DNA of 63,890 bases, the filler included, from Hausera hauseri (Eukaryota): the NCBI GenBank assembly GCA_046269625.1. It is 11 parts of 11 records of this genome, joined end to end, with 100 filler letters (N's around TTAATTAATTAA, not from the genome) between each part and the next. Parts side by side here need not be neighbours in the genome. Positions count along the whole stretch, not along the records: positions 42,880 to 48,554 come from JBJURY010208856.1; 10 more parts are not named here. One strand, written 5' to 3'. A program made the position numbers and the translations under genes. A model generated the notes under the pieces. It did no database searches. It was not told the origin of the DNA and saw only the letters and a list, made by a program, of their open reading frames with translations. Shown piece by piece: positions 14,365 through 59,210 of this stretch (its first letter is position 1; every line of letters begins with the position of its first letter).

Positions 14365-15201
14365 CTACGAACTCCACATTGGTTCGTAGAATTTTTGGAA
14401 ACAATTATTTATATATTGCAACCAAGTGCTTTTAATTTCTTCATTCGGATTCATGTTTGTCGAACTATTTTTGTATTTGTATTTTATTTGATTAAGTTTT
14501 ATCTCAAGTTTTGGAATCATGGTCATTAAACAATTGTCATTGTCTATTCGATTATTAATTCGATTTGTTAATTCTGCAGCGTGTTCTGAACCATTTTTGG
14601 AGAAATCTATTTTCTTCAACCAATTTCTAATTAAACTCAACGATTCAAATGGTTTGATGTTACAAACATAATTGTTGTATTCCCAAACACTTGATCGATT
14701 GTCAAGTGCAAAGACTGGATTAAAGCAGTCATTGAAAAAATGACATTTTGCTTTGTGCTTTGTTCCAAATTCTTTGAGATATTCTCCGGATACAATTCGA
14801 TTTTCAAAATACTTTCCTTTTGGATCTATAACTCGTAAAATACGAGATATTTCAGATAAACTGATTTCACTGAATATCCACAAATCAAATATTTGGCTGG
14901 CTTCTTCTAGGAAATTTTGAAGTCCAGGTCTTGACTGAATCAGAATGTGATACTCCCATGGTAAATAGGCATATCTCGCATTGAGACCGTTAGAAAAATT
15001 GATGTTATTTAATGACACGGAACGAGGCACTGAAGCACACGAAACAAGTGTGTTATCAAGATCACAAAGAAGGAATGGTTTGCTTCGTTTCCATTGCTGA
15101 TCTAAGCAAAAATGATGTTTGCAAGATTTATTCTGTAACAATTTTGCTTTCTTCAAATTAATTTCTGCTGAAATAATATTCGAAATATTTGAACATTTCA
15201 T
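14365..15201 (-). CDS. Intronless FCP1/CTD-phosphatase-like HAD (NIF/FCPH) protein, 278 aa, no BRCT
   Basis: LLCDLDNTLV (DxDxT motif), RPGLQNFLEE, IDPKGKYFENRIVS and ALDNRSSVW are collinear with the FCP1 catalytic domain. Confidence 0.8.
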   Translation of the reverse strand: MKCSNISNIISAEINLKKAKLLQNKSCKHHFCLDQQWKRSKPFLLCDLDNTLVSCASVPRSVSLNNINFSNGLNARYAYLPWEYHILIQSRPGLQNFLEEASQIFDLWIFSEISLSEISRILRVIDPKGKYFENRIVSGEYLKEFGTKHKAKCHFFNDCFNPVFALDNRSSVWEYNNYVCNIKPFESLSLIRNWLKKIDFSKNGSEHAAELTNRINNRIDNDNCLMTMIPKLEIKLNQIKYKYKNSSTNMNPNEEIKSTWLQYINNCFQKFYEPMWSS

Positions 15202-15760
15202 AATTAATGACTGATTTGATGTGAACGATTCTTTCTTAAATGGGACTAAATTTTTGTATAATTATATTTTCCAGTATTTATGTTGGTTAGATTTATTGGA
15301 ACGTATACCATATGGAGTTTGATGGTTACAAAAGTTCTAGAAATTTGCATTTTAAAATATCTTTCACTTAAACGTTAACTCTAATTTTGTAATTAGTATT
15401 TAAAATTTAAAATTTAAAATTTGTTAATTTTTAATTCATTCCCTATATGTGTGTGTTTGCATGTTTATCCACGGTCATTTTGCTTATGACGTTTACCCTG
15501 GACCCTGTGTCCAATAAGCAATATTCCCATGTGTCTTCTATCTTTAATTTGATTCCTGGTCGTCAATAAAAACATTCAATTTAATAAAACCGAACTGAAC
15601 ACGAAATTATATTTTAATTTTATATTAAAATTAGTTTTAATGAATTAAGATGCGGTTGAGAAAGTTTCAAAACATGAAACCCGGTTAATGATTTCCAGAT
15701 TAGACATTTCAGAAATTTATAAAAATTTATTAGAAGTTGAAGTTCTAATAAATTTTCATA

Positions 15761-21883: not shown

Positions 21884-22011
21884 CTGCAAAAAATGAAATC
21901 AATTGAAACGGTACTCAAAATGTATTATGATTACTATTATTTTTAATATTTTAAGAATATTTTATTTTATTTTATTTATTATTATTTAGTTTTATTACTT
22001 TATTTTCATTA

Positions 22012-25000
22012 TTACGAACGAGGTTTCCGCTCGAGAACACGAGGTTGTACGTTTGGAATATCCTCACAACGACCTCGAGAGCGGGTAAAAGGGCGGAGAT
22101 CCATGACAACATCGCAATCGATGTCGGTAACATTTTGTTCCAGTCTTGGATTACCGCTCGTAATTATGGGACTAACCGCGATCGGAGAATTTCCACTGGT
22201 TCTTGGTATATTACCTGGAAAATTTTCTAAACCTTCAATCAGGTCTGGGAAGCCTTCGAAGTCCCCTTCTTCTTCTGTCACAGCTGGGAAACCTTCGAAG
22301 TCCCATTCTAAGGATTGAGTGGAGTCAATGGATTCCTCGTCAGAGTCTATAGAAAAGGTCTCCAAATCCACTATTTCCAGGAAACTAACCCTCCTGCGAG
22401 AGTCAGTGGGCTCCATCGGACTTTTTCTCGATGACAATATCGATGGAAACTTGATATTGTAATTACGCAGGAAAGTTGAAAGATCAGGTGAACCAGTGTG
22501 AGCCGAATCAACGGAAATCCTACTTCTATTGTTAATATAATTACTATTAACATCGCTAAATATAGTACTAGTCTTTGCAGGGCTTGTCACATCTATCGCC
22601 ACCGCCGTAAGTTGGCTGATGATGCGCAAGACATTTTGTATTTTTACCAAGGACGCCCGCGTTTCTTCGTCCAGAGAAAACCCCTCAAAATCCTCTTCAT
22701 CTGCCTCGATCGACAGGTTATTCGCGTGACTAGTACGGTTTTCCGTATCATAACCACGAGTTTCGATTTGTTCGATCACTGGTGGTGCTGTAGGTTCAGG
22801 ATCCACTCGGATATCCCGCATAGCCTTGGCATTGAATTCCTCATGATTCTTCAAATACTCAGGAGGAATCTGCCATCTTTTCAATTGGCTATGGTGTACA
22901 CGGTACACTCGATTATCCTGACGGGACTCAATCTCGTACGTGACCTTATTTGGGTTGACTTCTATTACTTCCAAAGGACCCAAATATCGTGGAAGTATCT
23001 TATTTGACACGAGGTCACCTGAAAATTGTTTCTTCATACCCACTAGGTCACCAACCTTGAAAGCGTTGTAAAGAGGATGCCCGGGTTTCCAGAAAGACTC
23101 GATATTCTGTACGGGAAGTTCGTGAGATAACTTATGGGCCTTCTCCATTATGCTCTCACACGGTGTTAATAGCGTTTGAGCATGCTGGGTATGGTTATAC
23201 GTAACCAAGATATGAGGTAATTCAATATCCCAGTTAGTACTTTTGCTTAATGAAACGCGCAAATATTGGAGCAGTGTTCGATTGACACGCTCAACCATCC
23301 CATTGGACGAAGGTTTATATGGCGTCGTTGCGACATGTTTAATATTATATTTATCTAGAACATTTTGGAATTCACTGCCCAGAAACTCCTTTCCGTTGTC
23401 AGACAATAAACGTTCGGGAAGTTTCGGCAACATGGGCAGGATAATACGTTGTAGAGCGGACGCGACGGTAACGGACTGCTTATTCCTTAACGGAACCGCG
23501 GATACCCATTTTGAAAAATGATCAACGAAGACCAATATATATTTATTGCCTAAACGGGATATCGGCATTTGCATTAAATCCACCGCGGTAAGCTCAAATG
23601 GACCAAAAGTTACTATTTTAAACATAGGTGGAACAACTAACAAATTAGATAATTTCGAAGTTTGACACAGGTAGCACGTCGTCGGCACGTCATGGCAAAT
23701 CTTGTATAACGACGGATGCCAAATGTGTCTATCCAATAACGCAGTTAATTTATTCCTACCTAAGTGCGCATACTCTAAATGACATTTAATTACCACGTCT
23801 ACGGCCAGTGAAAACGGTACTACATAAGGTACATGTCCTTTCGCTGTAGTTTTATTTAAAATATCATTATAAATTCTATAATCCCGCTTAAATCGTAGGA
23901 AGGACTTCAATTCCCGCGAGAGATAACCAGTTATCCTAGTGGGGCTTTTTACACATTTAAATAACTTCCTGATCGTTTTATCAGCAGACTGCGCATATCG
24001 GATTGTCTCTTCCGATAGTAAGGACCCCTCAAAAGGGATTTCCTCCTCCGCTAATTCCTCTAGGCGGATGCACAACGCTTCGATCGTTTCGGATACCGAT
24101 TTTGATATTAACTCCTCCCCACCAGACCCGTCTAACTCCTTATTTAGAAGGTTAGCCTCAGTCCCTTGGGAGCACTCACGTTCCTCAAGAGATTCATCCA
24201 GAAGATTAAAGGAGACAAAGTTTCCTTCAATTTCTAGATGAGGATATGGGTCCTGTGGTTCAATCACCACCGAATCTGGTGTGGTTCCCAGGAGTAAATC
24301 GTAATGAACCCCCCCTAGGCATAAAAGTCTACACAGTTTTTCACTCGTGGTTGGGCCGAATCTAAGCGGTTCTCCACTGCCGTAATATACCCATACCTGA
24401 GTGTGGTAAAGAGTTGCGAATGCTTGAATAGCTTCGGTAATAGGCATTTGTCCTTCCTGTTTCATTAATTTTAACAGTTTAGTAATGCCTATGTGATTTT
24501 TACCACTCAATATACCATACTTCTGTTTATGATCCAGCAATTCCTGGATTACCTCTTCCCGCAATTGTAAATGTTTGTCGGTGGTGCCGAATCTCCACAA
24601 TGCTAGGCACATGAACAGTGAGTCACCCCCTCCTGGAACTTTATGAACGAAGGAACCTGGGGGCAATCCTTCCTCCACAGGTGAAGGGAGCGTCTCGTGC
24701 GCTGCCACTGGGGATCGCGACAAAGCATCTGCGATGATATTCTGTCGACCCGGAATGTATCGTAGTTCGTAATCGATATCATTAATCTCTTCTAATGTCC
24801 GGGCGACTCTCTGATTAACTAGAGACATGCTATTCAGGAAGATAAGCGGCTTATGGTCAGTATGAATAATGACCTTAATGCCGTATAAGAATGGCTTGAG
24901 TGATTTTATAGCCCATCGGATAGCGGCAACTTCTTTTTCCGTGGTGCTATATTTTACCTCAGCTTTTGACCAGGTGGTGGAAATATAAGCAATTGGTTTG

Positions 25001-27159
25001 AGGTCCCCTTCTTGTTCTTGGGCCAAGCAAGCTCCCGCTCCTACATTGGAGGCATCGACGAACAACATGAGCGGTGGTGCTTCAGGCTGTCGATTGGGAT
25101 ACACTAGCAAGGTGGGATTTACCAGTTCTTCCTTGAGTTGTTCAAAAGCTGTCTGACAGTCCTGAGTCCAACTCAAAGTTTTCTTACCCAAAATCTCAAA
25201 TAATGGCTTAGCTATTTCCGAACACCGTGGTATATGTCTACGATAAAAGTTTACCATGCCAAGGAATTGTCGTACTTTTCTAACCGTAGTAGGTATCGGG
25301 AATTCTTTAATTCCTTCGATACTCTTTTGTAGTGGGATCATTCCCCGTTCCGAAACCATGTGACCAAGGTATTGAACCTCTTTTCGTAGCAAGAAGGTTT
25401 TACTTGGTTTGATTTTAAAACCTGTATTTGAGAAAGCAATCAACACCTTTTCTAGGCTCCCCAGATGCTCCTCAAAAGTCTTGCTAATTATGAGGACGTC
25501 GTCAAGGTATACCATGACTTCCGTCCATGGGATGTGAGACAAAGCGTATCTCATACCCCGTTGAAAAGTGGCTGGTCCATTTTTCACCCCAAAGGGCATT
25601 CTTAGAAACTCCCAATGAGATATAGGAGTGGTGAAGGCAGTCAGTTCAATGCTGTCTTCCTCCATTTCAACCTGATAATATCCTTTGACAAGATCAAGGG
25701 TGGAAAAATATTTCACTCCTTGCAGGCTGAAAAGCATATCTATGAGATTTGGGATAGGGAAACTATCTCCCTTTGTAATTTTATTCAACTCCCTGTAATC
25801 TATACATAACCTCATAGACCCATCCTTTTTCTTTATTGGAACTACAGGAGCGGAGTATGGGGATTTACTCCGTCTGATGATCCCTTCGGCTTCTAACTTT
25901 TTACAATTCTCTTCAACCTCCTTTAATATGGGGCCTTGCAGTCTACGGACGGGTAGCTGCACTGGATCGGTGTGAGTGACCTCGATCCGATGTTTGATGA
26001 CTGACGTGCATCCTACGTCGCCATCGTGCAAACTTAGAGCGTCCGGATACTTCATCAGGAGAGAGCGAAGCTGATCTTTTTGCTCCCCCGTGATGTCCGA
26101 ATCGTCTAACCTGAAGTCAAAGTTAAGTTTGGCTTCAGTCCATCCGGATTGTTCAACATCATCGGGAGTCTCGGCCAACTCCACGACATTGGCCTGGGCA
26201 TCGACTGGATCTGCCCATTCGAGTGTCCCGATCTGCTGACCCTTTTTGACTTTCAAATACCTTGACCCCTCATTATAGGCCAAGATAAATGCTCTATCTC
26301 CCCTAATTTTTACTAGTCCGCTTGGGGAGATGAACTTGCAATTCTCATTGCTAACAAATAATGGTAAGGTTGAAGAATTTTCACCCGCAAACTTAGGAAT
26401 TTCTATTTCTACTATTTTCCCTGAATACGGGCCTAGCGAAATAGCTTCGCCTAAATAGCAATCAATATTATTTTCATTTACCTCGCGCCGCGTATCAAAT
26501 GCTACCGTTTGAACGACATTACCGATACGCTTTACTAATTCGCGTTCTCGGGAGTCGGGTAACAAATGCTCATTGCTAAGAATATCGAATCCCATAATTA
26601 CATCGTGATGAGTGAGCTCATCGGGAATAACGATAAACGTATGAGAGTTTAAGGTAAATGTTTTGGAAAAACCTAAGTTCAAATCAAGTGCCCCTATAAT
26701 CGGGTACTTTACCTTTCCAATACCGCTGATGCTACGATACATCGTCGGTTTAAGGGGAAAGATATCGCAATTCAATTGCTCATAGCAACGGCGGGTAATT
26801 AAGCTAACTGTAGCCCCCGTATCAACAAAAGCGACGTATGACGTTTGTGGCTGTTCCACTACATGCACTTTAATTAATAGTGCTTCTGGCGAGAGTGTCG
26901 ATAATCCCAACTCGATGTTAGGTTGGTCATCTAGCTCGTCGTCCAGAGCGTTCACTACGTCTTCTGTTTCTTTTTCTTCTTGCGGCTTGTCTTGAAACGG
27001 ATCAAGATCAGCTGCCGTCAAGAAGGGATCGACTCTTAAGAGGTCTTGGATTATGGGAATCCTCTCTTCAATGGAAGATGATGGAGAGCCATCCAGTACC
27101 TCTTTTTGGATCGCTTCCCCTGAGCCGAGGTCTTCTGACTCAGAAGCAGCTAGTTTCCC
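22012..27159 (-). CDS. pol: Pol (via -1 frameshift): protease, dUTPase-like spacer, RT, RNase H, OTU-like domain, integrase, acidic tail
   Basis: Uninterrupted 1732-codon frame containing FVDTGA, LCIDYRELN, MPFGVKNGPATFQR, YLDD (25498-25509), FVDAS, TDHKPL, DALSR, VPGGGDSLF...HYD, HHCC zinc motif, VDL/SDNG/MVER DDE triad and YLGPLEV. Confidence 0.97.
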   Translation of the reverse strand, partial: GKLAASESEDLGSGEAIQKEVLDGSPSSSIEERIPIIQDLLRVDPFLTAADLDPFQDKPQEEKETEDVVNALDDELDDQPNIELGLSTLSPEALLIKVHVVEQPQTSYVAFVDTGATVSLITRRCYEQLNCDIFPLKPTMYRSISGIGKVKYPIIGALDLNLGFSKTFTLNSHTFIVIPDELTHHDVIMGFDILSNEHLLPDSRERELVKRIGNVVQTVAFDTRREVNENNIDCYLGEAISLGPYSGKIVEIEIPKFAGENSSTLPLFVSNENCKFISPSGLVKIRGDRAFILAYNEGSRYLKVKKGQQIGTLEWADPVDAQANVVELAETPDDVEQSGWTEAKLNFDFRLDDSDITGEQKDQLRSLLMKYPDALSLHDGDVGCTSVIKHRIEVTHTDPVQLPVRRLQGPILKEVEENCKKLEAEGIIRRSKSPYSAPVVPIKKKDGSMRLCIDYRELNKITKGDSFPIPNLIDMLFSLQGVKYFSTLDLVKGYYQVEMEEDSIELTAFTTPISHWEFLRMPFGVKNGPATFQRGMRYALSHIPWTEVMVYLDDVLIISKTFEEHLGSLEKVLIAFSNTGFKIKPSKTFLLRKEVQYLGHMVSERGMIPLQKSIEGIKEFPIPTTVRKVRQFLGMVNFYRRHIPRCSEIAKPLFEILGKKTLSWTQDCQTAFEQLKEELVNPTLLVYPNRQPEAPPLMLFVDASNVGAGACLAQEQEGDLKPIAYISTTWSKAEVKYSTTEKEVAAIRWAIKSLKPFLYGIKVIIHTDHKPLIFLNSMSLVNQRVARTLEEINDIDYELRYIPGRQNIIADALSRSPVAAHETLPSPVEEGLPPGSFVHKVPGGGDSLFMCLALWRFGTTDKHLQLREEVIQELLDHKQKYGILSGKNHIGITKLLKLMKQEGQMPITEAIQAFATLYHTQVWVYYGSGEPLRFGPTTSEKLCRLLCLGGVHYDLLLGTTPDSVVIEPQDPYPHLEIEGNFVSFNLLDESLEERECSQGTEANLLNKELDGSGGEELISKSVSETIEALCIRLEELAEEEIPFEGSLLSEETIRYAQSADKTIRKLFKCVKSPTRITGYLSRELKSFLRFKRDYRIYNDILNKTTAKGHVPYVVPFSLAVDVVIKCHLEYAHLGRNKLTALLDRHIWHPSLYKICHDVPTTCYLCQTSKLSNLLVVPPMFKIVTFGPFELTAVDLMQMPISRLGNKYILVFVDHFSKWVSAVPLRNKQSVTVASALQRIILPMLPKLPERLLSDNGKEFLGSEFQNVLDKYNIKHVATTPYKPSSNGMVERVNRTLLQYLRVSLSKSTNWDIELPHILVTYNHTQHAQTLLTPCESIMEKAHKLSHELPVQNIESFWKPGHPLYNAFKVGDLVGMKKQFSGDLVSNKILPRYLGPLEVIEVNPNKVTYEIESRQDNRVYRVHHSQLKRWQIPPEYLKNHEEFNAKAMRDIRVDPEPTAPPVIEQIETRGYDTENRTSHANNLSIEADEEDFEGFSLDEETRASLVKIQNVLRIISQLTAVAIDVTSPAKTSTIFSDVNSNYINNRSRISVDSAHTGSPDLSTFLRNYNIKFPSILSSRKSPMEPTDSRRRVSFLEIVDLETFSIDSDEESIDSTQSLEWDFEGFPAVTEEEGDFEGFPDLIEGLENFPGNIPRTSGNSPIAVSPIITSGNPRLEQNVTDIDCDVVMDLRPFTRSRGRCEDIPNVQPRVLERKPRS
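27110..27159 (-). promoter_or_regulatory. -1 programmed ribosomal frameshift signal (G GGA AAC plus downstream stem-loop)
   Basis: Heptamer GGGAAAC (27153-27159) sits immediately before the gag TAG, and pol is in the -1 frame. About 5 nt later GCTTCTGAGT...GCTCAGggGAAGC can pair. Confidence 0.85.
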
Positions 27160-28002
27160 GATTTCTGGGTGCAATCCACCCCCAAATGTGCTCCTTTGCA
27201 AATGGGGCACTGGGGCACTTCGTCACGTCCCTTATTAGGACATTCAGGAGCTATGTGTCCTTTCTCCTCACAGATTATACACTTCCGCTGGGCCACATAG
27301 CAATCCTGATGGACGTGCCCACGCTTTCCGCAGAAATGACAAAGGGGGCGCTTGCGACACTGCCCCATGTGATGGCCACGCTGTTTGCAGTGGCCACACT
27401 TCTGCGGAGATTGGGCCTGCCTCCTAGGCGGTGTCCTAGGAGGCGAAGCCGGCGGCGCTCTAACCGCTTGTCGCTGAATCTCCCGCTGAGGTTTGGGACT
27501 CGGCGGGGGAGTTCGCTTCGGGCTCTGAGTCGGTTTGTATTGAACTCTTTGGTTCATATTTGTATTATTCTTATTATTGTTATTTTTACTATTATTATTA
27601 TTATATCTATTATTATTTCTTTTTGGGGACTTAGGAGGAGAAGGTGGAGCCGTTGACCTCCTATAATTAGTATTGTAGTAAACGCTTTCCTTGGGTCGAG
27701 CCCCACGCACGGCATCCGCATATGATCGGGACTCTCCCTCTCCAATATAAGCAGGCATCGGTGGTCGTTCCCACCTTTGCGGCTCAATTGGAGTAGGTAA
27801 CGCTTGATATGCCTCCGGGTGATAATTTACCGTTGGGTTGGGCTGACCCCAACGGTTTTGACAATGACAATGGTGCTGTGTGTTACCCCTTGTGGGTGCC
27901 ACCATTGTCAAGTCAATGATCTCAGGTACGGCCTGAGAACCATTGACGGAGGGCATATTAGCGTCGACCAGGGATACGAACTGTTCCCAGGTCATACGGG
28001 AC
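27150..28002 (-). CDS. gag: Gag, C-terminal part with Pro/Asn-rich linker and four zinc knuckles
   Basis: CGHCKQRGHHMGQC, CHFCGKRGHVHQDC, CIICEEKGHIAPEC and CPICKGAHLGVDC. Ends KSGN-TAG. Confidence 0.92.
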
Positions 28003-28198
28003 CCCATGGTGTACTCGTGGTTTCTACGAGCATTTTCCACATAGAACCTTACCGGCGTTGGGATACTAGCCAGGAACCTNNNNNNNNNNNNNNNNNNNNN
28101 NNNNNNNNNNNNNNNNNNNNNNNTTAATTAATTAANNNNNNNNNNNNNNNNNNNNNNNNNNNNNNNNNNNNNNNNNNNNCATTGTGAACATACGTATT

Positions 28199-33737: not shown

Positions 33738-35420
33738 TATCCAGATATGACTAAGCCATTCATATTGGCAACGGATGCAAGTGATTATGGAGTAGGAGCG
33801 GTATTATCACAAAAAGATGAAGATGGTAGGGAACATCCAGTTGCTTATGCCTCGAGAAAATTAAATGAACATCAAATGAAATATGCAATTATTAAAAAAG
33901 AATTATTGTCGGTAATATTTGCATTAGAAGTATTCTCATCGTATATTAGTGAAAATAAACCGTTGGTAGTTAATACAGATCACCGACCACTGCAATGGTT
34001 AAAGAAACATGAAAACCCGAATAGTATATTACTACGATAGGCACTAAAACTCCAGCCATATACATTAGATTTCTAATATAACCAGGTACGCGAAATGCGA
34101 ACGCGGGTTATTTATCAAGATTACTACAGGAAAAAGGAAAAGGGGAAGTTGTAGCGGCAATGTGGCGCATGGATGGATCCATAAAAACACAAAGGAGAAC
34201 CAAAGGAAAGATGAAGAGATAAAAGCAATAAGGAGTTTTATTCAAAATAAAATAGTACCTAAGGATAGAGAATTAGCTCGTCACTTAACCAGATTTGGAG
34301 ATGCTTATGAAGAAAAGGACGGATTTTTGTATTATATTCACCAAATGGACCAACATTAATAATTCCAAAAAATAGAGTTGTATTATTAACTCAATACCAC
34401 GATGGATTACTAGGCGGTCACCAGTCGGAAAGAAAAACAATAAATAAGTTGAAAAGGAAATATTTCTGGCCAACTATAACTCAAGATATTCCAAACTGGT
34501 GTGATAGTTGTAAATTATGCGCTACTCGAAAGAATACCGGATCCAAATTTAAAGCTCCGCTAAAAGTTTGGGACAATCCCTTTGGTCCATTTGAATTTAC
34601 CGCAATGGACATAACCGGACCTTTACAACTAACAAGAAATGAAAACCGGTACATTCTCGTGTTTATAGATTACTTTATCCGATGGGTCGTTGCAGTGCCC
34701 ATGCCAGATATGAAAGCAGAAACGATAGCTGAAAAATTTGTAGAAAATATAATATTTAATTATGGAGCTCCTCAAATCCTGTTAACAGACCAAGCATCTA
34801 ACTTAACCGGTAATGTAATGCAAGCAATATACGATATTATGAAGATTTTAAAATTGCGGTCTACTCCGGGACATCCAAAGAACAATGGAATGGTGGAAAA
34901 ATACATAGGAGATCTGAAAGAAAAACTACAAACGGTAGTTAATGTATGACAGGACAACTGGGATAAGTATATTAATGCGTGTGTATTTGTAAATCGAACG
35001 TCTGTACATGAAGCTACCAAAGAAACACCTTTTTATATGATGTATTTAAGAGATGCTCGGTTACCAATTGATTTGGATTTCCACGTACGACCTATATCTC
35101 AGTTGATGGAAGTAGAAGAATAAAAACAATTAATGCAAGAACGCTTACAGCTAGCGTACAAGATAGTGAAGGACAATCAGAAAGAGTACAAATCGACGTA
35201 CAAGAAATATTATGATGAGAAAACTAAACAACCCAAGATTAAAGTTGGAGACAAAATGATGTTGTATATACCAATAAATAAGAAAGGTAAGACATCCAAG
35301 TTGGATAGACCGTATAAAGGACTGTATGAAGTAGAAAAAGTGGATTTACCTCATACATGTTGAAAGACGAATAATGGTAGAATTAAGGTACATGTCAAGA
35401 GGTGCAAAGCTGTGCCTAAG
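33738..35420 (+). pseudogene. pol: Decayed Gypsy RNase H-integrase (element F)
   Basis: PFILATDASDYGVGAVLSQ, TDHRPL, MDITGPL, LTDQASN, NNGMVEK and RPYKGLYEV. Confidence 0.92.
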
Positions 35421-36969
35421 GAAGACGAATTAAGAAATGACAAACAGAAGTTTGTACGGGCCATCAATTATAAAAGAAGTAATAAAACTCCAAAATATGA
35501 GGTATTTAAAGGTCTCCGTCTATTGATGGTTATAGTGATACCATGTTTACTAGCTTATACAACAAAACCACCTGATCCATGGATGAGAACATTTCCTTCA
35601 AATGAAACGCTGGAAAATAGTCTGATGAAAAGTATTTATCTTGAGATAACTTATACAAGAAAATGTCAAACTTTTATAAGATTCACGATATTTGACAGGC
35701 TACCCAACCAGTATATGATAGGAATTCAAGCAATTCATTAGCACGATTACAAACGAAGTCCGAAACAACGAAAATATGACTGCGGTCTCACTTATTGGAG
35801 AAATACTACGAATTGTATAGTAGATGAATCTGGCAATTATCTCATGTACTATACATTGATCAAGAGACAGAAGAATAGTTATCAATGGCAGTATACAAAG
35901 TGCCGAGGTATCATACAAGTTCCTAATAGACGGACGAAGAATGCAACCAAATTAGACAAAATGATAATAACCCAACTCACCGTTAAGTCCATGGGACTTA
36001 AAAGCGGATGAAGTTGTATTGAAATTAGAACAATTATAAAGTTGGAAGAAAACAGAGTAATAAGCGTAAAACTTACGGACGTACAAAAGAAACAAAGAAC
36101 GTCAACAAAATGCCAGTTGACCCACAGGCACTCTCGAGTCTGCTGTAAGGCCTTACAAGGAGGAAACTGATTTACAATTTATATTAGCATGAAAAGATCC
36201 AGAGAGCGTTAAGACTCTAATTCACCAAGGGCCCAGAGTACATGTTCCTATCAAAAATGCTATTAAATATGACGACGACCAGCAATCAAGTGTCGCGACA
36301 CCTTGCAGATCCTCCACTAGTTAATAAAATAAAGACAAATGTTGGAAAAATGACCACGTCGTACCTTATCGTCACAAACGTTCTGTCTTGGAAAAGGTCA
36401 CAGTATCTTCCACACTTACTTCCTTAGTCGTAGCTATTCAACCCGATTTAAACTTCTATAAAATTAAACTTATCTGTAAGTTAGGTCAAAAGATAATAGT
36501 GAAAGGCATAATCACGCCAGATGATACAATAGTGCCGTGCGCCGGCCTAAGTCCAAATACAAAATATACCGTTACACTGCAACTATACGGCGACAATAAC
36601 ACAATGATTGTTACTAAGTCGCTGACAGCCTCGACGAAAAGTAGAACGCACCAAAAAGTAGAAAATAAAAAAATGAGTACAAGCTTAAATATAAAACCAC
36701 TACCGAAAGCAAGTTATACTTATTCCCGAGTAGAATTAATAATAATATTGACTGTATGCCCCATAATATTAGTGATTGTGTTAGTAATCATAAGAATAAT
36801 TATTTACCTACGAAAACGTCCCAGATCAAATTTGATTTGGATCGATATGCAACCCATATCGAACATACTAGACAGACAACCCCAGTTGACGGTTATTTGT
36901 AGGGATTGCTGTATATGCAACCCCAGACGCAGAGATAACCCACTGTTATCTGGTTACCTCCCTATATAA
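35412..36969 (+). pseudogene. Env-position type I membrane protein remnant (signal-like segment, FN3-like domain, TM); starts in frame with integrase
   Basis: GLRLLMVIVIPCLLAY hydrophobic segment. FN3-like VTVSSTLTSLVVAI...FYKIKL...GLSPNTKYTVTLQLY (about 36390-36640). TM LIIILTVCPIILVIVLVIIRIIIYL followed by RKRPR. Confidence 0.65.
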
Positions 36970-37076
36970 ACTTTATCAGAATAGAACCACAACGATTACC
37001 AAAGTGAGGTGTATGATAACCGTTGTGTTGTGTTTAAGTACCATTTTTACAAATACATTGACTATTTCATTTCTAG

Positions 37077-38323
37077 TATCCGCATCGACGCTACATCAAA
37101 TTTAATCGGTCACCAGATCCAAGCATTGGTATAGCAATGCAAAGAATCATCTTATCAACGCGAATTCAAATAATCAGTATCATGTGATTCATAACGAATA
37201 TACCATCAGCCTGAATTACCCACAGACACAACAGATTCAAAATAACCTTAAATGTTACAGTATGGCAAACAGATCACTAGCCCTACTACAAATAACTAAA
37301 CCAAACCCATTTTATATTACTGACATTATCTTCCTCCCAGATCACTTTCATTCAATAAATGTCTATTGTATATCTGGGCAATTCCATATTAAAACTACCG
37401 ATACAAAAACATTGATAAAAGGAGACTTAATCAATATGGACCCAGAACACGGTCTAGCATTTGATTTCACTTTTATCAAAAGCATCACGTTAAAAAATCG
37501 ATCTCTCACGAGTCGAATAATGTTTGCCTTTAAGGTAATAAAGAAATAAAAATTTCTACCCAGCTTACCAGAAGGAAAGTGCTTCAATCTTTCAGAACCG
37601 GAATACATCAAATATAAAATGATCCCATACAGAAGAATTGAAAAAGTTTCTAATGAAGATTTGATCACAGCCGCCGTGAACTTAGCGTATGACCAGTGGG
37701 ACCAATTGCAACCAATTGAAGTCTCAATAATAACTCTCAACGTAAATACCCTTTTTATGGTACCATTACCCCGAGGCAAAGAATTAACAACTTTGATACA
37801 CATTTAACGGGCCTCGCTGAAATAAACATTAACAACCAAATCGATTCTATGGATTTCCACCGGAAAGTAACTAAAGTAATTACAGATAAGATAGTCATTG
37901 GAGTCGACGTAATGGAAATGATAATCAATCATTTCAAATGCCCTATCAGGCGGATCGCCGGAGTTCACGATATATTATATCACGAAGAGGTGATCCGCAA
38001 ATACCAATTAACTACGAGTACACATAAAGAACTTGCTCGGAAATTCTGATACCAAAGGATTTCTCCTTGGTAGTACTGCTCTGATGCAGTGTTATCAATC
38101 GATCTGCCACAAGTTAAAATGGAATGACGAATTCATCACACAAAGCACGGCCTCTGACAGTGTGCGAACAGCACCAACAGCATCATTGTGCGGCAGAAAA
38201 CGCAAGTTCCACGTAGATGAAACGGTGGTCATAGATGACAAAATTTACGAACCAGAATCCATACTGTATAAATCAAGATCCTCCGATAAATTGATTCTCA
38301 TGCGCCTGTCGCTCGATCAATAA
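37077..38323 (+). pseudogene. ORF4 remnant: unknown domain plus REX4/ISG20-like DEDDh exonuclease fold
   Basis: IHNE...IQNNLKC...NRSL is shared with 46573-47319. Across one frameshift: AAVNLAYDQ...IEVSIITLNVNTLFYGTITPRQRINNFDTHLTGL...VITDKIVIGVDV. Acceptor-like TTGACTATTTCATTTCTAG ends at 37076. Confidence 0.6.
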
Positions 38324-38786
38324 ATTCGGAACAATTTCTCTAAACCCCCGGCGAGTTTGGTAGTCGGTTTGTTAGTCCATTTGAGACTATTCAATATAAC
38401 AATATACGTCGCCAGCAATATATGTCTCCTACAATATAACAATATGTCGCCAGTGTCATTATGATTTTTTGACTATTGCGATTCCTCATTACGATCTTTG
38501 TAGCCATCATGATTTTTTAATGACTATTTTAATGTCGCCCATGCATGTCGTTTATTTTATTCATGATAGGTGGGATATTTCATTGTCTATGTTAATATTT
38601 TATGCTTAGGTGGCTATTAGTTGATTGCATGACGAGAACTTAAACTACTATATAAAGTAGTAGTATTTTGAAAATGGTTAGTTTTCNNNNNNNNNNNNNN
38701 NNNNNNNNNNNNNNNNNNNNNNNNNNNNNNTTAATTAATTAANNNNNNNNNNNNNNNNNNNNNNNNNNNNNNNNNNNNNNNNNNNN

Positions 38787-42879: not shown

Positions 42880-44970
42880 AAGCAGAATTGAAATTAAATC
42901 CGAAGAAATGTAAATGGGGTCAAAACGCCGTATTCTACCTTGGCCATGTAATAGGAAAAGGTGGATCAAAACCAGATAAATCACTACAGAACAAGATATC
43001 AAATTGCACGGAGCCGAAAAATCAGAAAGAGTTAAGACACTGGCTAGGGTTATGTAGATAATACGCCACATATGTGCCAGATAATTCGGAGATAAATTCA
43101 CCCTTATATCGCTTTCTTAAGAAAGGAATTAAATGGGGATGGGCAGACGTCGAATAGAAAGCTTTCGACGAAATGAAGAAGATATTAACAAGTGAACCAA
43201 TTTTACAATACCCGAACTTCCACTTATCCTTTATAATCAAGATAGATGCCAGTAATGAAGGTATTGGATATGAATTAGCGCAGAAAAGAGAAGATGAAGA
43301 ATTAGAACACCCAATTGCTTATGAAGGACGTTCCTTTAAGAAGGCCGAGAAAAATTATTCCGTTGCTGAATTAGAAACTGTATCAGTAAAAGAAGAGCTT
43401 CGAGACTTCAACGTTTACGTGTACGGGCAGAAAATTATATTTGTCACTATCATGAAATCGTCCCGATTTAAGAAAACGAGCAAACAATCCGACATGCAGA
43501 CTTAACAAATGGATCGAAGAAATCACAATATCGAATTCCAGTATAAGCCAGGAAATAAACATGTAGATGCCTACGCACTATGAAGACTAAAGACCAGAAC
43601 AAGTGCAATCACTGTAATGATGAAAAATCAGCTTGAAGAAATAATAGATCGCCAAAGCACCTTAACGTTGGATAAAGCCATTAAATCCTCAATCGAACAA
43701 AGAAAGGATAGAATCATCTAGCAGATTATAGAATTTGCCGAGAAAAACCTAATACAAAAAGGACGACAATTAAAAAAACATTTACTCAGACACGGATATA
43801 AATACTGTGTCTTTAATGACCACAACAGTGGAGACATTTTGTATTACGAACGAAAAGAAAGAAAATTAATAGTCATCTCAAATAACTTACACTCCGAGGT
43901 TTTAATGGCGGAACACGACTCATATTTAGCAGGGCACATGTCGTAGAAAAAGGCGCTGGAAAGAATATTAAATAAATACTTTTGACCCAGTATCTATATT
44001 AATGTGAAGAATTGGGTAAATGCTTGTGAAGTATGTGCGACCAAACAAAAGAAGACAAAGAACTACATGGCTGAATTAAAACCAGTCAATGTACCTGATA
44101 GACCGATGCAAACTTTGTCGGTGGATATTGTAGGACCTCTTCCTATGACCAACAAAAACAATAAATATATCTTAACTTGTATTGATCGACTAACTCATTT
44201 TGTCGAGTCAATAGCGCTAGCTGATCAGAAGGCAGAAACTTTGGCCAAAGCTGCAGTAAGAAGAATCATTTGCCGATATGAATCCCAGACCAAATATTAA
44301 CAGATCGAGAAAGAAATTTTACAAGTGAACTATTCGAGTAGATTACCAAAATATTCGAAATCGAACGGTTTGCTACTACCGCGTATCACCCTCAGTGCAA
44401 TGGAATGGTTGAACGAATAAATGCAACTGTCATACGCATTCTACAAACAGTAGTAGGTAAGCGCCAAAACGATTGGGACGAATTTTTAAAAGGACCTCAA
44501 TTTGCAATTAATGCCACCCCACATCCGGCAACAGGATTTACTTCATTTTTATGATGCATGGAGGTGAAGCTGTGTTACCCAAAGACTTAGGAATGGCGCC
44601 ATACGCAGTCAATCCCGAAGATTTAAAACAAAACTTCGCGGAAGTATTACAGGCGCGGTTAGAAAAATGTTGGAAAATCTCCAGAGAGTTATCTCAAGAA
44701 TATCAAGAACAGTTCAAAAAGCAATATGGTAAGAAAGCGAAACCGCATGATCTAGAACGTGGAAATAGGTTTCATGTACATTATTTAGTAGCCGCGAAAG
44801 GCACGTCATTAAAACTGACACGTACAAGAAGAGGACCATACGAAGTTACTAGAGTTATGCCAACTACAGTGTATATCAACAAGAATGGAAAGGAAGAGGC
44901 CGTATCAGTACAAAGAGTTGTTAAGACGGAGATACGGCCCAATAAACATTATAATTTACGACAACGCGAG
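42880..44970 (+). pseudogene. pol: Decayed Gypsy RT-end/RNase H/integrase (element H)
   Basis: FIIKIDASNEGIG, VDIVGPLP, AYHPQCNGMVER, RGPYEV and HYNLRQR. Confidence 0.92.
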
Positions 44971-46383
44971 ATAAAAACTTCCTCAATAATTGTTAGACCG
45001 ATATCATACATTAAGACAGTTTTAGCACTATCATTAATTGCTTCTTCCATCCCAAGAACATAAACCCAATGGTGGGACGATAAAATTACGCTCGGAGATG
45101 TATACGGAATTCGGAAGAGCGGATTAAAACCGAAAACCGCCGTTACAGAAAGGAAGCCGACGGCCGAAGAGATCAAAGGCAAGAAGACACTGCCTTGCAG
45201 CAATCGTTGAAGGTTTATTATTTTTCACCGGATGCTGTGTGTGTGAAATTTAAAACTTGGATACCGCATCACAAATTCGGAAGATTTCAGATGGTACTAA
45301 ATGATGTAACAACAAAAGGAATGAGAATATGTGACTTTGAACACGGAGATTATACACAGTACTGCGACATAGACTGTGGACACGCCCAATCCTTACGTAT
45401 CGACTGTATTTACCAGACTCATCAGAAGTCTATCGAAACAAATCTCCAACTTTAGTTATTTATCCCTGCTTGATGCATATAATTTGAAGTACAGCTAGAC
45501 AAAATACTACAATCTACCAACCCAAACATGAGACTATTACATAAAAATATTAATAAGATCTCAGTAAATAAAGAAAAACAATGCATCCAACTGGATGCTC
45601 GAACAGGATTAACTTTAGTTCAGTAAATTAGTATTGTTTTTGAAGCAGTAGATGGAAGAACTACGAAAATAAAATACTGTTCTGTTCATGCTGGTGTGCA
45701 ACATCCGTGGTGTAGGCTGCCAATATACCAAGAATTCAAAATAAGGATTAACTTATATGAAGTACAGACGAATAAATTGAGCAAACACTTGCGAACTTAT
45801 TACCCAGAAAATAGAATATGGAAGATTTCAATAGAAACGACAACCAAAAGGGCGACCACTCAAGTTAATACCATTACGAAAACCGTTGCATCAAGCAGAA
45901 TGCCTAAAGGAGAATTAGAATGTATACCTGTTATATATTCGCACATCGATTTAGGATTCTGTTCTTTGTAGAAGAAAAACTAAACTACCACATACTAAGA
46001 ACAACGTATAATAATCAAACTGTAACACTACTTAAAAATACTTACCAGACAGAAAGCAATTTATTAAATCCACAATCCAATTACATAGTACGAATATATG
46101 CCAAACAATTACATTGAGAACACTAGATGAAATTCGTGCAGAATCGCATATACACGAAAACATAAACGATGAAATCACGACTCCAGTCACCACACAAGCA
46201 CCAATAGGATTAACCACATTTCCAATCGTATCAATTATTATACAATCAACGTTTGTTCTCATCATATTAATTGCCATTTTCCACTTAGTTGCCAAAAATT
46301 TTTATTCTAAGCGTCCTAAAATTACGGCATGGAAACTAAGGGAATTGGAAAACCCCGTTGATCCGTATAACAGAATAACTTGA
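44970..46383 (+). pseudogene. Env-position membrane protein remnant (signal-like segment, FN3-like domain, Thr-rich stalk, TM); starts in frame with integrase
   Basis: ISYIKTVLALSLIASS, then FN3-like NYHILRTTY...LLNPQSNYIVRIYAK, then TTPVTTQAP, then TM IVSIIIQSTFVLIILIAIFHLVA followed by KNFYSKRPK. Confidence 0.6.
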
Positions 46384-46572
46384 CAATTACAGAGCGGATT
46401 ATTCTGTTATTGGTTCTATTTTGGAAACCATTTATGTTGTAAACTGCCAGTAAACCGGAAATTCAAAATAAAATTTGACTTATATGAAGTGCGTTCTAAC
46501 AAACCTAGTATACAGTTACGAACTTATCCCGAGAATAGAATAAGAGTATTGTTTATTTTTCAGATATGAAAC

Positions 46573-47700
46573 ATGGCCGAACGACGTAGCATCAACGAAC
46601 CAAGTGAAGATATTGTGAATTGCCGACGTAGTATCGAAGAATTCTTTCAGGAGTATGCAACCGTCCTTTTATTGAAGTCTAACTCTATCTATCGAGAAAT
46701 CCACAATGAATTGCATGGGAAAGCGGCTGTAAAATACGATCAAGTCCATATGATTCCGAATAACCTGAAATGCGTCACAGAAGAAAACAGGATCCTCTAT
46801 CTCTATGCCATGAGGGAAGATAGAGATGCCAGAGCATACTCGATTAAACAATTAATAGTTTATGAATCTGCTCGAAGCGTGCACATACATCTAGCAGATG
46901 GCGAACAATATTATCGAATTCGAAATCAAGAATGGAATACAAACAACGGAAGACAATATAGGTTCAGCACCCTCAATTTGCGAAGTGAAGATTTACAACT
47001 GTACGAATTGGAATTCCGAGTAGCCGCTGTTCCTGTCAAAATAATGTTTGAAATGACTTGTGATGAACAATCCCATGCTCCGTTGCCGCCCTTAAAATTT
47101 CAGCCAAAGTCGTCAGAAAAAGAGTTAGAAAATTCTTTATACTCATATAGATTAGTGTCAGATGTCGGAAATGTAAGAATTATAGCTGTCAATTGCGGAG
47201 AAGGGAACGATACGGAGAAAATTCCGATGGAAGTCTCAGTCAGAGAAACAAATGGAATGGAAACGTATCATACAATTATTAGCCCGAGGAAGCGTGTCAG
47301 AGAGACGTATTACGATTAGACCGGAATTCGTAAAGAAACCGTTAGGAACGGAAAAGATGTTAGGATCGTGCGAACAGAATTAGAACATTGTCTTTACGGC
47401 TACATCCTTGTCGGATATCGCGTAGAAGAAGTTATAATCCCATTGGAACTCTCCTATTTGAACCTCGCAGGAATAAGAGAACTCGGTACGCACCCAGTTA
47501 TTGCCGAACGGATAAAGAAATTATTACGGGACAGAGACTATCCCATGACGAAAATCATGGACGCTTATTTCAAACTAGTAATAGATGCCATGAGTGATGG
47601 TCGCTCCAAGGTCAGTAAACTGCTAACAGCGAGCCAACGCACCCAATACCTCCGAGATATTTAAACAGGATTAAAGTGGGAGCACGAATGGGTTCCTAGT
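46573..47700 (+). pseudogene. ORF4: unknown domain plus REX4/ISG20-like DEDDh exonuclease fold; in-frame stops at 47317-47319 and 47662-47664
   Basis: RIIAVNCGEG...MEVSVRETNGMETYHTIISPRKRVRETYYD*TGIRKETVRNGKDVRIVRTELEHCLYGYILVGY aligns with REX4-type ALDCEM...RVSIVN..G..VYD.YVKP...V.DYRT.VSGIR...L..G.....V..EV...L.GRILVGH. Acceptor-like TTTATTTTTCAG ends at 46563. Confidence 0.68.
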
Positions 47701-48654
47701 AACCCTTCACGCAACTTATGTAGTTCTCCGAACCCAGACGGAATAAGTAAAAAGTACCGGCAACAATATCAACCATAAAACTATCGAAATTACGGAAACA
47801 GAGAGTTTTAGAATAACCGTACCCCAAACTGTCTTAAATGAACTACCCGGTACCAGCTACGAAAATTCCGGAACATCAACAAAAGAAATAGCCAAAAGCA
47901 CAATATTCAAGATTCCCCAAATTCCGAAAAAAAGCAAAAGGTTGAACTACCAAATCAGAAACCAAAAAATAAACTTTCCCTCTATGATTACATATTTAGG
48001 AAAACCCATAAAATGGCAGTTCCGCCGAAAACCCGGAAGACGCCCATATATCAAGAGAAAACCCATTAACAACAACCAGTCAGCAGTAATCAGGACCCAG
48101 AATTCTACGGACGAATCCAGACGGTTCACGGAAGGGAATGTCCTCAGAAATAGACACACACCAGGAAATCAACATTTCGCAAGAACGGAAGATCAACCTA
48201 AGATGTTAGTAACGACAGAGCACTACAGTCATGGGAAAATCAAGGAAGCAATGTTTTTTTCTTAAAACCACGCCCAAAAGGGAAGTGTATGAAAATACCT
48301 ATATATGGGAGAACCTCAAATTAGGGAAGTATGTGGCGTCGATTTTTCAATCAAAGAGGAATGGTAAGCTTTCAATACCCGTAGACAGACAAATAAAAAT
48401 CCTACTAAAAAAGGAATATCAAAAGTACCAGACGGAAAAGAAGGTTCCCGATTTAGACCGCGAAATGTTAGCAGATTGGATCTTGGTAACAGTACGTTAT
48501 GACTCAAAAAAAGCTCAATAGACCCCAGGCAAAAGAGGATTCACGGATATCTATNNNNNNNNNNNNNNNNNNNNNNNNNNNNNNNNNNNNNNNNNNNNTT
48601 AATTAATTAANNNNNNNNNNNNNNNNNNNNNNNNNNNNNNNNNNNNNNNNNNNN

Positions 48655-56459: not shown

Positions 56460-59210
56460 TACTTTTTTATGTTAATGATTTAATACATTCATTAATATAT
56501 GTATAACGGAAATATGACAGATTCACTGACCTTTCTTTGATGATATTCCTCAAATCTTTACTGGTTTCTTCAGTTTCGATGATTGCTGTCTTCGATGATT
56601 CACAAAGTAATATTTGGCGTGATAACGCATGATAAATGGTGGACAATTTTGGGGAATCATGCCATAGTAGAAATGTTAGATTGGATTTTTCGAAAATGTG
56701 ACAAAAAATTCGGAGATTTCTACTCGAATTTGTATCATTCTTTTTTGAACGGCAAATTCGATTTGCCAAATCTGTGAGACAACAGAGAGTATATCCAATT
56801 TACGGGAAACGGAATAAAAATGCAAATTCTGCAAACGCGTTCGAATATCATTCGACGATGTGGTGTGTTGAGAAATCCGCTGAGAAATTTTGTTGAAATT
56901 ACTATAAATTTGTTGAGACAATAAAATGAGCTGGAGACAACCACGGATATCATCAGATGAATTGGTCAAATCAATGTTAACAAATAATGATTTACCGAGC
57001 TTTTGAAGGATATTCTTCATTTTAACGGAATCAGTACGCGTCAATACAATCGGTCTTTTGTTTTTTAATTAGACTTGAATTTGAATTAGGAAACCCTTGA
57101 CCCTGTTCAAAAACAATATCCGCCTTATCAAATACGATCAATTGATTCTTTTTTACTTTTAAACGAGATTGTTGTTTTCGAGTCTTATCCAATTGATATG
57201 CTTTAGATTGCATATTCAATTTCCGACGTTTCCTACGCGGAGAACAGAAATCTTCCGTGGGTTTTCGTTTTTTGCTCAGCATATGTCTCTTTACCAGTTC
57301 AGACGCTGCTACAATCACTTTCCATGGTAAGGTAAGGAATATGGGCAGTTTAACGTATAGGATCATAGGAAATGACATGTTCAATTTGAGATGGAATCTT
57401 AAGTCGATACGGACCCAAAACAGGAATAATACGTTTATGAAACCATGATGCAAACATTGATTTGACATGTGGATCAACAATAAGTGCCTAGTGATCACGG
57501 AGTTCATCATTCGTAGCATTGAAACATTCTGGTCCACATTTCAATGCCAAATACAGCAAAAACAAATCATCAGCAGTTTCCTTATTTGTCAAATAAAATG
57601 ACAATTGCAAATCAATATTCGTCGCCATTTGTAATTCATTAATCGATTTCGTACACGATTGAAAAAAATCGGTTGGTGATAATTTCAATTTATGAGAATA
57701 TTTCCCTACAAAACAGAAATTCGTCAATCGTTTGTCATTCTTATTTAACGTAACGTGAGTCTGTACGGTAAAATTCAAAAGTTCGGCATCAGTTTGAATT
57801 CGAGTTTTGTATTGCGTTAAAATCAAATTCGGCAAATCAGTGAGGCAATTGTAAACTAATGAATACTGATTGAGGAGTTCTTTAACTTTTATTAATTCCT
57901 CGGGAAATAATTTCTCGTAGAGTCTGTCGATGTTGTCACTTTTCATAACATCTTTGATGACGGCTGTTGCCATTTTGTCACATTTCCTTTGTCAATTGAC
58001 ATGTTGGTAAATTTTCATGGCAATGTTTGCAATTGTTTCCCCTCACGGAATTCATCTCCAATTTCACGCGGCAAATTTCATTGCAAATCGCCGACAATTC
58101 CACTATATTCTCCTCTGAAATCGGTCGACATTTACCATTCAAAATCCGCCAACAATTTCGCGCCATTCTCCCGTGTTAATTTATTCACGAGCCTCCGCAC
58201 AATCCGCACAGAAAGTGTATCCGTCAGACTAAGCAAATCGACAAGAAATGGCCGCACAACGGCAAAAGACTCGTTACTCGGACTCGACCTGACAATGTTC
58301 GTTAACTGAGTCTCATTCAATTGTCTGGAACACTGACTGTCTTCACTATACGCGGACCAATTTTCGTTGAGTATCAAATCAGTATTTACTTCTTTCCATC
58401 TTTCAAACCACATTTTAAATTTCCATACCTGCGGCACACTGGTGAAATAATGATCGGATACTTTTGGTGTATAAATCCAACCAAGATTTTCCGGTCTGCG
58501 GAACAATTTTCTGGAGCAAATTCATATAAATTTTGTAACAGTTTAGAAATTGAGTATGTTGAGAAACTGTCAAGATTCTTTGGTTCATTTCGTCATCTGC
58601 TTCTGGTGATTTTTCTTTATTTTCAACCACTTGCAAAAATTCCGCAAACGACATTTCTACATTGTCGCAATGTTTACTAGAATCAGACAAATTTTCATTT
58701 TCATCAGAAATATAGTCAAATGTTTGGACGTCTGTTGTATTTGGAATGGTATTCTGAACTTCTGACATCATTGTTAAAGATACATATGAAAGATAAATAA
58801 ATCCAAATGGTAATAGAAGTGAGAGTAATAAATCTAAACTATCATAAACTGTATTTCAAATTCAAAAAATTTTTATCCATAATTTCTCATCAATATTTTC
58901 ATGTTAATATACAAAAATATTTACATATATATATATATATATATACCTTTAGTCTGAAGGTTTCGTCACAGTCGTTAGTGATATGATCTTTATTCACGTG
59001 AAATAATATCACATTTATCATAACGCAATTCATTATACTCACGACCAGCTGCAATGAACACACGAAAATATTCGAAATCTTCGGAACAAGTTTCTCTTTC
59101 TTCTGACTGACCTTTCGAATGAGTTTCGACACATTTAAATTGAAGTAGTTATTCCGTTCCTCGAAAAATGCCCAATTTTTGTATCTGTCCATTTTGTCAT
59201 GATCATCCAT
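56460..59210 (-). pseudogene. Frame-disrupted gene of unknown function
   Basis: Chain of abutting or overlapping minus-strand ORFs (58899-59210, 58415-58771, 58132-58506, 57978-58166, 57488-57973, 57031-57537, 56676-57044). Contains a CxxC...CxxC pair and an NLS-like RRKRRK. No family recognised. Confidence 0.45.

Follow-up and report, generated by a model that had tools for sequence, protein, structure and literature searches.

Chromodomain and DnaQ-like domains are known accessories of LTR retrotransposons, as a short statement in one source has it (PMC6338049). The closest described accessory nuclease is the ORF3 product of the bdelloid Juno and Vesta elements, which is of the DEDDy, RNase D-like type (PMC5408684), and DEDDy domains are also present in Terminons (PMC6431247), whereas the REXO, ISG20 and PAN2 enzymes are grouped together (PMC3985635). 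An earlier reading of the DNA analysed here, made from the sequence alone (the sequence-only reading), had named nematode as well as bdelloid LTR elements as carriers of DEDDy exonucleases. The bdelloid part of this statement stands; for nematodes we found no precedent, the word "nematode" being absent from the portion of the bdelloid paper available and the literature otherwise giving only general RNase H papers. A nuclease or an AlkB domain is known as retrotransposon cargo separately and in active form. In a survey of mostly open literature, at the level of main texts, we found no LTR element with an ISG20-type DEDDh domain, with AlkB fused to DEDDh, or with a pseudo-nuclease. Here we describe the third gene of a Gypsy-type lineage, which would encode a protein joining a predicted AlkB-like fold to a predicted ISG20-like exonuclease fold, the latter being, in the branch found here, very probably a constrained pseudo-nuclease of the ISG20 type.

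The window, a stretch of 63,890 nucleotides from Hausera hauseri, consists of 11 draft contigs with N-TTAATTAATTAA-N spacers between them, and a gap of 10 N splits the last contig. Two contigs are relevant, G (42880-48554) and F (33738-38686). On each, the 3' half of one Gypsy-type element is preserved in decayed form; RNase H precedes integrase, and both elements agree with the Gypsy/Ty3 pol order of RT-RNase H-integrase (Table 1). Both contigs are incomplete, and no LTR pair was seen in either. In both elements pol is followed by a membrane-protein ORF and then by ORF3, the last ORF. The protein with an FN3 domain and a transmembrane helix that the sequence-only reading had placed beside the nuclease is borne out upstream in F by its Atlas leads, with no fn3 call by Pfam and weak monobody matches (E 0.7-1.2). 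The membrane-protein ORF of G has no Pfam match, and its likeness to FN3 was judged by eye only, just the helix being established. G also contains an internal duplication of 93 bp (45708-45800 and 46435-46527, 73% identical) that encodes a strand pair similar to the one that closes an FN3 domain; of the two copies, the second is located between the transmembrane helix and ORF3, close to the latter.

Table 1. Features of the Gypsy-type elements G and F, in positions of the whole window.
Feature	Position	Strand	Evidence or remark
G: end of RT and RNase H of Gypsy-type pol, with stops	42882-43460	+	Pfam RT_RNaseH_2, 4e-28
G: integrase (zinc finger and core), decayed, changing frame at ~44285	43782-44450	+	37% identity to F integrase; end placed by eye
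G: broken membrane-protein ORF in env position	45150-46383	+	hydropathy 2.82, hydrophobic helix 46225-46281
G: putative splice acceptor, T-rich tract and CAG	46549-46563	+	9 nt 5' of ORF3 ATG
G: ORF3, broken, reaching contig end	46573-48554	+	homologous to P0002 residues 58-719
G: ORF3 N-terminal domain, predicted 2OG-Fe(II) dioxygenase (AlkB/prolyl-hydroxylase-like) fold	46618-47064	+	model, motif scan
G: ORF3 ISG20/REX4-like DEDDh domain without all five catalytic residues	47170-47694	+	
G: ORF3 tail, low-complexity linker and conserved block (48255-48553), frame-shifted	47695-48554	+	
F: RNase H and integrase of second Gypsy-type pol	33738-34946	+	RT_RNaseH 1e-33, Integrase_H2C2 3e-18, rve 5e-11
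F: FN3-like domain and transmembrane helix (36736-36792)	36328-36966	+	Atlas 0.92 to FNDC9/FNDC5 clusters, hydropathy 3.59
F: ORF3 in pieces	37106-38323	+	N-terminal domain from ~37166

Elsewhere in the window, an intact-looking Gypsy gag/pol with a 1735-aa PR-RT-RH-IN frame occupies 20426-28079 on the minus strand. A long insert between its RNase H and integrase looks OTU-type-like by eye, and a 491-aa ORF downstream begins like an SGNH/GDSL esterase, again by eye; neither has a Pfam match. The minus strand also carries an uninterrupted ORF for a NIF/FCP-like phosphatase (14368-15261; PF03031, 1e-15), whose DLDNT motif looks intact, and a piece of a gene for a protein-only, PRORP-like RNase P (57491-57991; PF16953, 3e-11). 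Judging by this gene piece and by the types of element present, the host is probably an animal. Identical 77-bp repeats at contig ends (10380-10456/16867-16943 and 17867-17943/28003-28079) are probably k-mer-sized overlaps left by the assembly of tandem or circular units.

The exonuclease-like motifs that had been noticed in G (AVNCG...EVSV...YHTIISP...TGIR...GYILVG) are present in a single frame from 47170 when stops are read as X, the two in-frame stops of the domain being at 47317-47319 and 47662-47664. In F, AVNLA...EVSI (from 37673, with the Exo I A-V-N at 37673-37681) is followed by TGL...KIVIG...IAGVHD in a second frame (37777-38046) and by KLKW in a third piece. The frameshift that had been proposed near 37755 in F exists and lies at about 37780-37800, with a second frame change at about 38040 and an in-frame stop at 37547-37549; the ORF closes with a short tail containing RKRKF and a terminal stop at 38321-38323. 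The homology of the two regions was also upheld, over about 210 codons, the upstream domain among them, with 24% identity and an E of 7e-4 for a search within the window. Its signal resides mostly in the N-terminal domain, for which the local score between G and F was 81 against a shuffle mean of 32.5, with none of 1000 shuffles scoring as high. Alone, the exonuclease pieces of F are weak, since 133 of 1000 shuffles scored as high for the Exo I piece and 14 of 1000 for piece 3; for piece 2 only 9 of 1000 did so, but the local alignment that scored best had placed it on the wrong domain. Neither G nor F has a nuclease or dioxygenase match in Pfam, and the RNase_T family (PF00929), which the sequence-only reading had chosen as a check, matched neither at E<=1. 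The matches of G to the PDB by phmmer were weak and no more than suggestive, with three of the four being DEDDh enzymes (E 0.04-0.8). The G and F copies in the window are themselves dead. We conclude that the exonuclease-like observation is confirmed, and that the fold assignment rests on relatives and modelling.

An exhaustive phmmer search returned nine matches, namely two close relatives, five distant ones, a REXO4 from a fish and a repeat protein that is spurious. The close relatives of G, both free of stops, are P0002 (870 aa, 46% identical) and P0003 (333 aa, 44%), the latter ending within the nuclease domain; the distant relatives (P0004-7 and P0009) have both domains. A profile search gave eight proteins, seven of them new, and a metagenome scan gave 14 loci, 13 of which, from two assemblies, are family members and one of which is bacterial. 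Word-indexed homologue searches with G alone as the query found no match, and neither did pattern scans with G over metagenome and viral contigs or a scan of the viral contigs with the intact-family alignment. P0008 (a spurious ERAP1-like repeat protein), P0019 (a C-terminal fragment), the near or exact duplicates P0011/P0012/P0021 and L004/L007/L008/L012, L011 (internal stop) and L014 (bacterial contig, DnaQ-like) were left out of the counts. The host REXO4 proteins P0010 and P0013 served as an outgroup only; over the domain, G is 24% identical to fish REXO4.

The assignment to the ISG20/REX4 type of DEDDh fold, as originally proposed, was borne out by the family profile, by Foldseek and by structural alignment of a model, and this predicted fold is well supported. 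The profile matched ISG20L2 (4e-16), the PolC exonuclease (4e-8), SDN1 (1e-7) and ISG20 (2e-7). With the AlphaFold model of the G exonuclease domain (14 sequences, pLDDT 74.7), which has the DnaQ-like fold of the DEDDh enzymes of the ISG20/REX4 group, ISG20 was the top match by Foldseek (1.7e-7), and structural alignment to ISG20 (VIA) gave a Z of 19.4 and an rmsd of 2.2 Å over 156 aligned residues, the runner-up having a Z of 14.8. Two distant relatives, P0009 (33.4) and P0006 (26.4), pass the Pfam RNase_T gathering score of 24 bits, and G, F, P0002 and P0003 have no RNase_T match. Homology of the DEDDy/RNase D type was not found: DEDDh enzymes occupied the top ranks and the intact relatives have the Exo III His. 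In Atlas, P0002 had leads under 0.9 only; a lead at 0.88 was to an arenavirus nucleoprotein cluster.

Catalysis by DEDDh enzymes requires D, E, D, D and H (PMC7756014). We read the catalytic columns from the family alignment (MAFFT), where 16 rows have DEEHD and the incomplete L005 has DEE. The same columns read ANVLR in G (A206 at 47185, N208 at 47191, V288 at 47431, L352 at 47623 and R357 at 47638), ANMLC in P0002, AN in P0003 and F, ARKEE in P0005 and NDTNR in P0020. G, P0002, P0003 and F thus all have A-x-N at Exo I, in the form A-I-N in P0002 and A-V-N in P0003. The acidic residue of Exo II, E in intact relatives, is replaced by V288 in G and by M in P0002, and the H-x4-D of Exo III by L352/R357 and by L/C, respectively. 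The global MAFFT alignment put fragments of F in the wrong place, among them the third piece, whose Exo III is L/L by eye only.

The sequence-only reading had described the change at Exo I as Asp to Asn. A better register is Asp to Ala206 and Glu to Asn208, because D-x-E-C and A-V-N-C align without a gap when anchored on a conserved Pro, the closest intact Exo I of the family being D-[IVA]-E-[CF]. The structural alignments begin at residue 201 of the model, opposite residue 6 of ISG20, 7 of epsilon and 1 of ExoX. From this common start, if the alignments are ungapped, epsilon D12 and ExoX D6, which we take to be the Exo I aspartates, both fall on Ala206. The same holds for D11, the Exo I aspartate of ISG20 (PMC7756014). 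The models were built on family alignments that include intact members, so a bias in register is possible. The register first proposed arises only when G is aligned directly to REXO4, and since MAFFT aligned the REXO4 row in this way, Ala206 is likely, not certain, to mark the Asp position. Exo I is lost in either register, with D-x-E absent from G in both.

The catalytic loss is older than the decay of the G and F copies, as had been claimed, because two stop-free proteins with 44-46% identity to G share A-x-N. The sequence-only reading had also stated that D-x-E retained in intact relatives would speak against it, and here the outcome is divided: 16 more distant relatives keep D-x-E and P0002 and P0003 do not, so the loss is the mark of one branch and not of the family. 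Its "conserved pseudo-nuclease" accordingly holds as a constrained domain of the G/P0002/P0003 branch, but not family-wide, as most members are intact. In the tree, the four A-x-N rows lie on one side of a branch (89/80, unstarred), the branch to F being very long (4.29). P0020 groups with the intact P0006 (95/92), which suggests repeated loss, P0005 and P0020 showing differing substitutions; the AU test (p 0.10) did not reject a single origin for all six dead rows. When REXO4 is included in the tree, its side takes in G and P0002 (88/90), on long branches.

To assess constraint on the dead domain, we compared G with P0002 and with related copies from run X1. The dead nuclease of G shares 45% identity with that of P0002 and the N-terminal domain 46%, against about 21% for the linker, a rough value because the linker is frame-shifted. 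Run X1 gave 30 contigs on 47160-47440, 24 of them less than 90% alike; third codon positions account for 26 of the 40 differences listed, out of 71 (p 4e-5), and these 40 are confined to 47205-47403, outside the Exo I codons. Six of the contigs do not have the stop at 47317. Given an identity equal to that of the N-terminal domain together with the excess of third-position differences, these sequence comparisons indicate that the dead domain was maintained as a protein during the divergence of subfamilies. Its charge is not unusually basic (28 K+R versus 25 D+E in G), and intact members are similar.

ORF3 starts about 200 codons 5' of its nuclease part, and the N-terminal domain encoded there had been overlooked. 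Modelled alone (pLDDT 80.8), it matched Ofd2 (Z 10.2, rmsd 3.0, 134 aligned), ALKBH6 (Z 10.1), OsALKBH1 (9.3), vCPH (9.2), P4H (9.1) and ALKBH5 (9.0). 2OG oxygenases fill every one of the top 12 rows, and the predicted structure has the double-stranded beta-helix core with flanking elements; AlkB members come first (10.2, 10.1 and 9.3), with prolyl hydroxylases within about 1 Z (9.2 and 9.1). In a viral fold library, the top matches were poxvirus proteins, in the lead (E 2e-4 to 5e-4), and viral AlkBs. Of the iron triad HxD/E...H, the HxD/E is missing from this domain in all of G, P0002, P0003 and F. Probably no member of the family has a working dioxygenase here, since HxD/E is found in only 4 of 21 rows, at two unshared sites, and RxxxxxR is found in the last 35 residues of none of the 21. 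One column is H in 14 of 21 rows, with D in 13 three columns on. Of the 21 rows, 18 retain a His, and an N and an R are invariant; these three may mark a binding site. The whole family has this N-terminal domain, with a predicted AlkB-like fold and without the canonical motifs.

P0002 has a RING finger at residues 747-790 (PF00097, E 3e-7), observed in this protein alone. By tblastn, G ORF3 is 45% identical to P0002 over residues 58-444 and 37% over 622-710, with pieces up to 719, and its equivalent of the RING would start about 28 codons beyond the contig end, outside the window; no RING was seen in the short tail of F ORF3. At the other end of the gene, a T-rich tract with a YAG, within 12 nt of the start ATG, is found as in G in 11 of the 12 related loci examined, which are related and hence not independent. 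This fits with the spliced ORF3 messages described for LTR elements (PMC5408684), and ORF3 would be expressed from a spliced subgenomic RNA. No RNA data set stood among the sequencing runs listed for the sequence, which speaks neither for nor against.

Two intact relatives lie in surroundings like those of an element, with further genes upstream of ORF3, a retropepsin and a membrane ORF in L008, and a repeat-bearing membrane ORF with two coiled-coil ORFs in L012. The retropepsin of L008 (3-1679) runs in one frame directly into hydrophobic and membrane-anchored segments with no RT or integrase before ORF3, and L008 is a deleted or unusually ordered element. Small duplicated coiled-coil ORFs lie between the membrane ORF and ORF3 in L012 (1773-2204 and 2669-3058) and L013 (588-1166), each with an acceptor-like site 5' of its ATG. 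In 6 of 14 loci, a hairpin with a CCCC..GAGA..TGT motif, which we read as the LTR start, lies 3' of ORF3; in L005 (1071-1138), an internally deleted copy, ORF3 ends early and the terminal hairpin motif follows immediately. No RT or integrase was seen in the short relative loci, and pol and env gave no match between the window and L001-L013. The L012 membrane ORF had no Pfam or PDB match and no significant alignment to the FN3-TM ORF of F (E 0.7). We assume that P0002 and P0003 sit in LTR elements.

On balance, and with some reservation, we favor a role for the ORF3 protein in counter-defense, in which it would bind RNA without cutting it and serve as a decoy or adaptor against host RNA surveillance. 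By analogy with arenavirus ExoN and SDN1, the intact relatives would be 3'-5' exonucleases aimed by the AlkB-like domain, and might remove or trim RNA able to trigger silencing; arenavirus ExoN is described as suppressing innate signaling (bioRxiv 10.1101/2021.02.01.429129). In the A-x-N branch, cutting would have been lost and the groove could still bind RNA ends or the host partners of REX/ISG20 nucleases. Such binding is likely to have been kept by analogy with Exuperantia and PXL, DEDD pseudo-nucleases that bind RNA (PMC13659232), and RNA binding is likewise described for the DEDD pseudo-nucleases Maelstrom and EXD1 (PMC5408684); the exonuclease-dead D154G mutant of ISG20 retains anti-HBV activity (PMC7756014). 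The branch protein would then shield element RNA from host RNA surveillance or disable that surveillance, and in the G/P0002 sub-branch the C-terminal RING could ubiquitinate whatever the two pseudo-enzyme domains capture. It is tempting, if doubtful, to see in the protein a dead AlkB-like reader of modified RNA joined to an ISG20-like 3'-end module. The intact form would read a mark and degrade the RNA, like a one-chain version of the pairing in which YTHDF2 aims ISG20 at m6A RNA (PMC7756014), and the branch in the window would be an RNA-guided E3 ligase destroying host silencing factors.

Poxviruses reuse inactivated enzymes in non-enzymatic roles, among them five derivatives of 2OG-Fe dioxygenases (bioRxiv 10.1101/2022.11.22.517515), and the disarmed folds of ORF3 could similarly serve the particle or RNP of the element, as an RNA chaperone, in packaging or in protecting genome ends during reverse transcription. 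The poxvirus proteins and viral AlkBs heading the viral fold matches of the N-terminal domain, as well as the Atlas lead to the arenavirus nucleoprotein cluster, fit with this role, which we nevertheless consider unlikely: the RING of P0002 points to protein targeting, and ORF3 is accessory and catalytically variable among relatives, unlike a core structural gene. It is less probable again that the nuclease died once and was kept as a folded spacer binding nothing, with selection acting on the N-terminal domain or the RING tail. Apparently repeated catalytic loss, in P0005 and P0020, is what one would expect if the activity were dispensable, and the AU test leaves room for one origin of the six dead rows; however, the dead domain equals the N-terminal domain and exceeds the linker in its identity to P0002, and the excess of third-position differences lies within it.

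The remaining alternatives keep an enzymatic activity, either now or until insertion. Some Maelstrom proteins have been proposed to use a non-canonical active site, and ORF3 might by the same token still cut or modify nucleic acid through the Glu of PxEVS or the conserved His of the N-terminal domain. All four A-x-N rows have this Glu, on strand 2, where most intact members have Ser, and the His recurs in most rows of the family. We think such rewiring very improbable, because at none of the five canonical positions is an acidic or His residue shared, and because DnaQ-type "IEIG" strands have this Glu too, beside a normal site, so that it may be structural. Most improbable of all is that the changes in G and F are mutations acquired by an active nuclease after insertion. 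Both copies are indeed full of stops and frameshifts and most family members are intact, but A-x-N is common to G, F and the two stop-free relatives, and P0002, which also lacks Exo II and III, contradicts this reading together with P0003.

A RING-linked adaptor, should the dead form prove to be one, would antagonize RNA silencing from within a transposon by a new architecture, and would clearly exemplify the conversion of an enzyme into a pseudoenzyme inside a mobile element. Whatever its role, a nuclease that is intact in most members and lost in others offers a natural active/inactive pair for probing the accessory nucleases of LTR elements, the purpose of which is a question left by the bdelloid study (PMC5408684).

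Altogether, the ORF3 protein has DEDDh and AlkB folds but stands outside the active families by its catalytic motifs, and it shares individual traits with several known systems. Like ORF3 of Juno and Vesta (PMC5408684), it is an accessory gene with a 3'-5' exonuclease fold in the ORF3 position of Gypsy-like elements, and its intact relatives, like the bdelloid proteins, read DEED rather than DEDD. It differs in being of the DEDDh, ISG20/REX4 type, in its fusion to an AlkB-like domain and in the membrane-protein ORF alongside; moreover, the bdelloid ORF3s are reported intact, whereas the G branch is without catalytic residues. The cellular enzymes ISG20, ISG20L2, REXO4 and SDN1 are the best profile and fold matches of the nuclease domain. 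Unlike them, G is element-borne and without catalytic residues, and a dioxygenase-like N-terminal domain here replaces the cellular extensions. Exuperantia, PXL of PML, Maelstrom and EXD1 also have a DEDD fold without the acidic tetrad, with RNA binding as their reported role (PMC13659232, PMC5408684), but they are host genes, with a SAM-like subdomain in Exuperantia and PXL, whereas the domain described here is ISG20-type transposon cargo whose binding is putative. Like C10, C4, A37, F11 and A51 of poxviruses (bioRxiv 10.1101/2022.11.22.517515), the protein has a dioxygenase fold with a disrupted catalytic site and belongs to a mobile element; this likeness is a fold match only, at 10-14% identity, with no evidence of common descent. 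An AlkB-type 2-ODD ORF of orchid Ty3/Gypsy elements (PMC9289625) likewise places a 2OG-Fe(II) dioxygenase fold on a Gypsy element. The orchid protein keeps HxD/E..H and RxxxxxR, which no member here has in a conserved column, and the domain here, whose AlkB and prolyl hydroxylase matches lie within about 1 Z, is fused to a nuclease fold. What is new in comparison with these systems is the family-wide fusion of an AlkB-like N-terminal domain to an ISG20-like fold, and the RING end of P0002.
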